Below, one piece after another: positions 60,663 to 61,319 of a stretch of DNA of 64,000 nucleotides. Numbering within the stretch: position 1 is the first letter of the stretch; every line of letters begins with the position of its first letter. A program made the translations under genes and the position numbers. Where the stretch lies: the sequence record PQ666539; one strand, 5' to 3'. This DNA is from Shigella phage sb1. The notes beneath the pieces are model-generated. The model ran no database searches, had not been told where the DNA came from, and worked only from the letters and a program-made list of their open reading frames with translations.

Positions 60663-61319
60663 ATGGCTGATTTAAAAGTAGGTTCAACTGTGGGTGGATC
60701 TGTCATTTGGCATCAAGGAAATTTTCCATTGAATTCAGCCGGTGACGATGTACTCTACAAATCATTTAAAATATATTCAGAATATAATAAACCACAGGCA
60801 GCTGATAATGATTTAGTTTCTAAAGCTAATGGTGGCACGTATTTAAATAAAGTAATTTTTAATAAAGGAATGACTGTTCCCGGTGCAGGGTCAGGTGACA
60901 ATGGTATTTTTGCTGTTCCTTGTGATAATGCCACATATGATACTACAAATATGGATATTGTTTCGTGTTATGGTATTGGTTTTAAATCATCACAAGGAAC
61001 AGCAGGTAGAACTGTAGTAATTAACACACGAAATGGAGATATTAGCTCAAAGGGCGTAATTGAAGCATCGCAAATACGCGCAACTTCATTATCTCCATTA
61101 AATAATTATGACCTCACGCGGAAAGATTATGTCGATGGAGCAATAAATATTGTTACAGCAAACGCAAACTCTAGAGTATTACGCTCTGGAGATAATATGA
61201 CAGGTAACTTAACCGCGCCAAACCTTTTTTAACAGAATCCTTCATCTCAACCTTCGCATGTTCCACGATTTGATCAAATTGTTATTAAGGATTCTGTTCA
61301 AGATTTCGGCTATTATTAA
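60663..61319 (+). CDS. 36: Long tail fibre distal connector gp36, interrupted by in-frame TAA at 61230-61232
   Basis: MADLKVGSTVGGSVIWHQGNFPLN...; frame continues after the stop (QNPSSQPSHVPRFDQIVIKDSVQDFGYY), giving 218 codons (T4 gp36 221). Confidence 0.85.

Follow-up and report, generated by a model that had tools for sequence, protein, structure and literature searches.

The sequence of Shigella phage sb1 (record PQ666539) carries a TAA codon inside the gene for the hinge connector of the long tail fiber, gene 36. The codon could belong to the biology of the phage, as a suppressed nonsense mutation, a reassigned codon or a natural truncation, or it could belong to the sequence as it was determined. 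We addressed this question over the whole stretch of DNA that was analysed, 64,000 nucleotides in length and hereafter called the window, by comparing it with its closest relatives and with T4.

Gene 36 is interrupted at codon 190 and otherwise intact in frame

The ATG at 60663 opens a reading frame that runs for 189 codons before it meets an in-frame TAA (60663-61232 including this codon). When codon 190 is read through, 28 further sense codons follow before a second TAA at 61317-61319, for a total of 218 codons. The locus can be described as follows:

60663-61319, plus strand: gene 36 (long tail fiber hinge, or distal connector), 218 codons and a stop, with the frame broken at codon 190
61230-61232, plus strand: in-frame TAA at codon 190, from TCA (Ser) via C>A at 61231
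61233-61319, plus strand: 28 codons plus stop past the TAA, in the same frame, with DNA nearly the same as in relatives

A preliminary description of this DNA had placed an in-frame TAA at 61230-61232 in gene 36, and the codon is indeed present there, as codon 190 of the frame that starts at 60663. The flanking peptide that it quoted is the same in our translation, which reads ...NLTAPNLF-stop-QNPSSQPSHVPRFDQIVIKDSVQDFGYY-stop across the interruption. The C>A at 61231 sits immediately 3' of a run of six T.

The gene 36 region is matched by 688 phage records, nearly all of them Tequatrovirus of Escherichia, Shigella, Yersinia and Salmonella, the best match among phage records being 96.5% identical. 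In ECp13, sb2, Sfk20, VIPECOOM01 and pSs-1, the homologue is an uninterrupted CDS of 657 nt that lies between gp35 and gp37 and bears the annotation gp36, hinge connector of the long tail fiber. The read-through protein of the window shares 95-96% amino acid identity with those of four close relatives and 77% with T4 gp36 (NP_049862.1). With serine put back at codon 190, it matches the Pfam family PF03903 (Phage_T4_gp36) at residues 56-184 with a score of 85.8 bits (cutoff 26) and E = 3.4e-24. The genes run in the order gp34-gp35-gp36-gp37, as they do in T4 and the close relatives, so that the gene lies at the position of this family.

Members of the gp36 family have an unbroken ORF of about 218-221 codons with the C-terminus ...SHVPRFDQIVIKDSVQDFGYY. 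In the window the ORF ends at codon 190, and this conserved C-terminus is still encoded in frame but past the TAA. The final 21 residues of gp36 are identical across four close relatives and T4, the DNA 3' of the TAA nearly matches that of relatives, and gene 36 is without decay downstream of the stop. The window gene is therefore like that of T4 in sequence, in its site between genes 35 and 37 and in the late-promoter-like box upstream of it, but differs in that its frame is broken at codon 190 and in seven private missense changes (see below). A sequence search of solved structures with gp36, aimed at the role of the C-terminal 29 residues, gave no match.

Codon 190 encodes serine in the relatives

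Where the window has TAA, four close relatives and pSs-1 have TCA and Ec_YwIITB1 has TCG. The preliminary description had given a serine at this position in T4, and alignment to T4 gp36 (221 aa) bears this out (...NFFSQNPASQ...). It had also offered a sense codon in a reference alignment as the observation that would speak against the stop. Such a codon is found, and the stop is accordingly peculiar to this sequence, while the TAA itself is real. Nine viral contigs with the same flanks carry TCN at codon 190, and a degenerate search of viral contigs for any stop at this codon returned three matches, all in unrelated sequence. The exact TAA-bearing 26-mer occurs nowhere in the viral, metagenome and genome contig collections, and the exact 189-aa shortened gp36 is absent among about 15 billion proteins. 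In the actual phage, codon 190 is almost certainly TCA (Ser) and gp36 a normal protein of 218 aa.

In-frame stops are scattered over the window

The preliminary description had implied that the TAA is a notable feature of gene 36 in particular. This part found no support: when the pSs-1 RefSeq annotation is projected onto the window, 32 more in-frame stops appear in 23 other genes, most of them essential, between 1858 and 60111. Each differs by one base from a sense codon of the relatives, and for 31 of these 32 the difference is again a G>T or C>A. The window as a whole contains 33 in-frame stops in 24 genes (26 TAA, 4 TGA and 3 TAG), at which Glu, Gly, Ser, Tyr and Leu are lost; in the aligned relatives, the codon opposite a TAA encodes Glu, Ser, Tyr or Leu, that opposite a TGA encodes Gly and that opposite a TAG encodes Glu. 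A single G>T or C>A accounts for 32 of the 33 (GAA>TAA, GAG>TAG, GGA>TGA, TCA>TAA, TAC>TAA), and the stop in gp23, TTA>TAA, falls outside this class. Single stops are found in terS, gp18 (tail sheath), gp23 (major capsid protein), uvsW.1, uvsY, gp51, gp29, gp48, alt, the Rz-like spanin gene, gp32, gp35, gp36 and three small hypothetical genes; terL, gp22, gp27, alc and nrdA have two each (the nrdA codons being adjacent), rnlA has three and gp34 has four. Nearly all genes in the window nevertheless keep the usual terminal stop codons of their relatives. The following stops were located individually (the strand is stated for nrdA):

2975-2977 and 3461-3463: terL, each a single-base change relative to relatives
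4125-4127: gp18, codon 128, GAA>TAA
11617-11619: gp23, codon 274, confirmed by direct translation
48397-48402, minus strand: nrdA, codons 124-125, two adjacent TAA where all relatives have GAA GAA
53210-53212: gp32, codon 9, confirmed by direct translation
56717-56719, 56786-56788, 57647-57649 and 59156-59158: gp34, single-base changes relative to relatives
60109-60111: gp35, single-base change relative to relatives

One substitution class is in excess

To describe the changes behind these stops, we aligned the window with the corresponding 65 kb of pSs-1, sb2 and Ec_YwIITB1, which are 95.8-96.4% identical to it, and called a change private where one genome differs while the other three agree. 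The window has 152 private C>A and 144 private G>T changes, 296 in all, against 28 for the two classes together in pSs-1, 54 in sb2 and 67 in Ec_YwIITB1. Transitions and most other private classes are similar in all four genomes, and A>T shows a small excess at most (68 in the window vs 30-43 in the relatives). This leaves the following feature, which occupies 1.37% (1.366%) of G:C positions:

1-64000: excess of about 250 unselected G:C>T:A changes, from the comparison of private spectra, with 33 in-frame stops in 24 genes

These changes occur everywhere in the window, at 11-28 per 4 kb, and at similar rates in coding (1.38%) and intergenic (1.11%) DNA. They show no trinucleotide preference (0.5-2.1% per context; CCG, at 1.26%, is near the mean of 1.37%), the order of C>A and G>T along the strand is random (runs test, z = -0.57), and the other copies of a mutated 9-mer are mutated just 3.7% of the time. 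Neither k-mer context nor a motif determines the changes, which are stochastic. Private indels number only five in the window, two of them at the alignment ends. There is mild clustering, with 25 neighbouring pairs of G:C>T:A within 10 nt vs 13.5 expected; the adjacent TAA pair in nrdA is an instance of it. The longest gap without a private G:C>T:A, 4100-6483, measures 2383 nt vs about 1360 expected for the largest gap, which suggests that the rate of error or damage was non-uniform, perhaps through higher coverage there.

Sites at which the window shares its state with one relative only have a normal spectrum, and the G:C>T:A layer is for this reason private to the window sequence. Beneath this layer, the phage itself is a distinct Tequatrovirus close to pSs-1, sb2 and Ec_YwIITB1, since its nearest phage records are about 96% identical over 20 kb.

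The stop in gene 36 fits this background. Given 2430 stop-capable sites in the window and a rate of 1.366%, 33.2 stops are expected and 33 are observed. Gene 36 offers 22 sites at which G:C>T:A yields a stop, and at 1.37% per G:C site the gene would acquire one stop or more with a probability of 0.26, so that the TAA is unremarkable as a chance event given the window-wide mutation load. Gene 36 has eight private changes, each of them a G>T or C>A that alters the protein. Beside the stop, they comprise seven changes between 60815 and 61242 on the plus strand, all missense, six of which affect residues that are identical even in T4:

60815, plus strand: F51L
60916, plus strand: G85V, residue invariant even in T4
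60921, plus strand: G87C, residue invariant even in T4
60968, plus strand: W102C, residue invariant even in T4
61098, plus strand: V146L
61195, plus strand: T178N, residue invariant even in T4
61242, plus strand: A194S, residue invariant even in T4

The G:C>T:A changes have escaped selection

In coding DNA, missense changes make up 76.4% of the private G:C>T:A set, nonsense changes 12.2% and synonymous ones 11.4%, close to the random expectation with all G:C sites treated as equal (79.8%, 12.8% and 7.4%, respectively). They are spread over codon positions 1, 2 and 3 as 87:80:70, and the missense changes among them total 181, many at invariant residues. Of the remaining 555 private changes, 428 lie at third positions; 76% are synonymous, 23% missense and 0.5% nonsense, the normal mark of purifying selection. 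Two layers are thus superimposed in the window, namely ordinary Tequatrovirus divergence and a set of G:C>T:A changes never seen by selection.

Origin of the changes

A phage with stops in its terminase, portal-proximal scaffold, capsid, sheath, baseplate, gp32 and long tail fiber genes could not replicate, and the changes must therefore have entered after the last replication in vivo. The selection test leads to the same point: selection never acted on the changes, which therefore postdate the last replication of the phage DNA. We consider it very probable that the TAA of gene 36 is one of the roughly 250 excess, unselected G:C>T:A changes introduced after that replication. The codon reflects a damaged or faulty sequence and not phage biology; it is real in the letters of the record but is not a real feature of the phage.

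The non-biological origin after replication is established by these observations. As for the specific chemistry, we infer that the most likely source would be damage to guanine, either its oxidation to 8-oxoguanine (8-oxoG) or its loss, after which A is inserted opposite the gap. Both lesions leave G:C>T:A as their signature, because 8-oxoG pairs with A and because A is inserted where guanine has been lost. An equivalent error of sequencing or data processing could be an alternative source.

C>A/G>T changes arising from oxidative damage are a documented artefact of library preparation (Costello et al. 2013, PMC3616734). This artefact has a low allele fraction, a preference for CCG>CAG and a bias in read orientation, with G>T in read 1 and C>A in read 2 (PMC3616734). 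The changes in the window are like it in their C>A/G>T class, in their strand symmetry, in the lack of indels and in being non-biological; the artefact is confined to the C>A/G>T class, and the excess in the window is essentially limited to C>A (152) and G>T (144). They differ from it in two respects: the artefact is seen in a low percentage of reads whereas the changes of the window sit in the consensus, or finished, sequence, and CCG>CAG dominates the artefact (PMC3616734) whereas CCG is not preferred in the window. The fit is partial. For such damage to become fixed in the consensus, coverage would have to be very low, or the DNA would have to be amplified from very few damaged molecules, and we suppose that few template molecules, or few reads per position, may have been involved. 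Miscalled glucosyl-hydroxymethylcytosine in nanopore reads was weighed as another cause. A consensus error from nanopore data alone is hard to reconcile with so few indels and with changes that do not follow the k-mer, and a literature search found no documented C>A signature for T-even DNA under nanopore miscalling.

Alternative explanations

A biological reading of the stop would have to account for the whole set. The TAA might be a true ochre mutation in a viable phage, read through by a suppressor tRNA of host or phage or by leaky termination, and the 28 intact, in-frame codons past it are what such a phage would retain. Suppressible nonsense mutants of the tail fibre are classical in T4 genetics, and the window resembles these amber and ochre mutants in having a single-base stop in an essential late gene with the downstream sequence intact. 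Laboratory nonsense mutants, however, have a single stop, or a few of the same type, and are otherwise intact, whereas the window has 33 stops of three types, which take the place of five different amino acids and are spread over 24 genes, and 181 missense changes of the same class besides; no single suppressor suffices for these. Moreover, a tRNA scan found no tRNA gene in the window (the T4-like tRNA cluster lies outside this part of the genome), and a stop at codon 190 occurs in no relative examined. We regard suppression as highly unlikely. Programmed readthrough was rejected on related grounds, as the leaky stop is not conserved: the relatives all have Ser, and no T4-like viral contig has a stop there. 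Some large phages read one of the stop codons as an amino acid, and such a code could explain many in-frame stops inside otherwise full-length conserved genes. A reassigned stop would be of one type and would align consistently with one amino acid, but all three types occur in frame here, and each was recorded as facing several amino acids; nearly all genes end at the usual stops common to the relatives, those relatives, 96% identical, use the standard code, and the frequency of stops is exactly what random G:C>T:A change predicts. The probability of an alternative code is in our view negligible. The same holds for the idea that the 189-aa gp36 is a functional natural variant: the Pfam domain (residues 56-184) does lie entirely upstream of the stop, but the last 21 residues are the same in four close relatives and even in T4 gp36, whose overall identity is only 77%, the DNA past the stop is intact and in frame, the exact product has no counterpart in the protein collection of about 15 billion, and seven missense changes of the artefact class accompany the stop in the same gene.

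Also improbable is the proposal that the changes were made in vivo, in a dead-end genome hypermutated at its guanines by a mutator, an oxidative burst or a guanine-directed host defence, of which one or a few molecules were then sequenced. The single clean class, free of indels and other errors, resembles DNA chemistry more than base-calling noise, and sb2 has the same class at a lower level. Sequence alone does not tell such an event from damage in the tube; a genome so broken cannot be the consensus of a propagating stock, and we know of no process in T-even infection that gives 1.4% pure G:C>T:A in one cycle. That the load stems from guanine-directed oxidative or glycosylase-type attack on a T-even genome within the cell or particle is likewise an outside chance; if this were the case, the stop in gene 36 would be one scar of an in vivo hypermutation event. 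Damage or error after the last replication is the explanation that we retain.

Related records with broken genes

The record of sb2 (PQ666540.1) shares with the window the GAA>TAA at codon 128 of gp18 (4125-4127 in the window) and has further in-frame stops at codon 608 of gp18 and codons 856 and 864 of gp34, all of the G:C>T:A class. In both records, essential genes are broken in an otherwise normal genome, and four of the four stops of sb2 are G:C>T:A, but the load is about eight times higher in the window (33 stops vs 4). Under purely random error, the probability of the common gp18 stop is about 0.05, which counts against pure randomness. A damage ancestry common to the two records was rejected, as the sites that sb2 shares with the window are near-normal in spectrum and the gp18 stop is the single one shared.

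Ec_YwIITB1 (PQ356294.1) differs from the window in that its genes are mostly broken by indels, with no in-frame stops in the aligned genes. Of its 28 private indels, 16 have a length not divisible by 3; the genes for the major capsid protein, hoc, nrdB and frd are split, and the gp36/gp37 junction is altered. This is a quality problem of the indel type, unlike that of the window.

For users of the present record, in-frame stops, split genes and odd residues in the window need to be checked against the G:C>T:A signature before they are believed, and this applies to terS, terL, gp18, gp22, gp23, gp27, gp29 and gp48 as well as to alt, alc, rnlA, nrdA, gp32, gp34 and gp35. More generally, the substitution spectrum, together with a synonymous/nonsynonymous test against two or three relatives, can tell true divergence from damage in phage records. 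At a lower level, the signature is also present in at least one public relative, sb2.

Features next to gene 36 and at gp51

Genes 35 and 36 are separated by a gap of 62 nt, which holds a hairpin with a T run and then a late-promoter-like box, both read from the sequence; gene 37 follows gene 36 and is preceded by a GAGGA ribosome-binding site.

60606-60628, plus strand: putative G+C-rich hairpin, GGGAGCCTTCGGGTTCCC, then TTTTT
60632-60639, plus strand: TATAAATA, late-promoter-like box upstream of gene 36
61328-64000, plus strand: gene 37 (distal long tail fiber subunit), the 890 codons of its N-terminal part, free of in-frame stops as far as visible

Records of relatives such as fPS-2 and NBG2 annotate a terminator under the matched region that includes the gap between genes 35 and 36, and fPS-2 annotates a promoter too.

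At 22053, the window alone has CAA for the terminal TAA of gp51, through a T>C that does not belong to the damage class. The gp51 ORF then stops one codon later, at a TGA that overlaps the ATG of gp27, and this extension by one residue looks benign.
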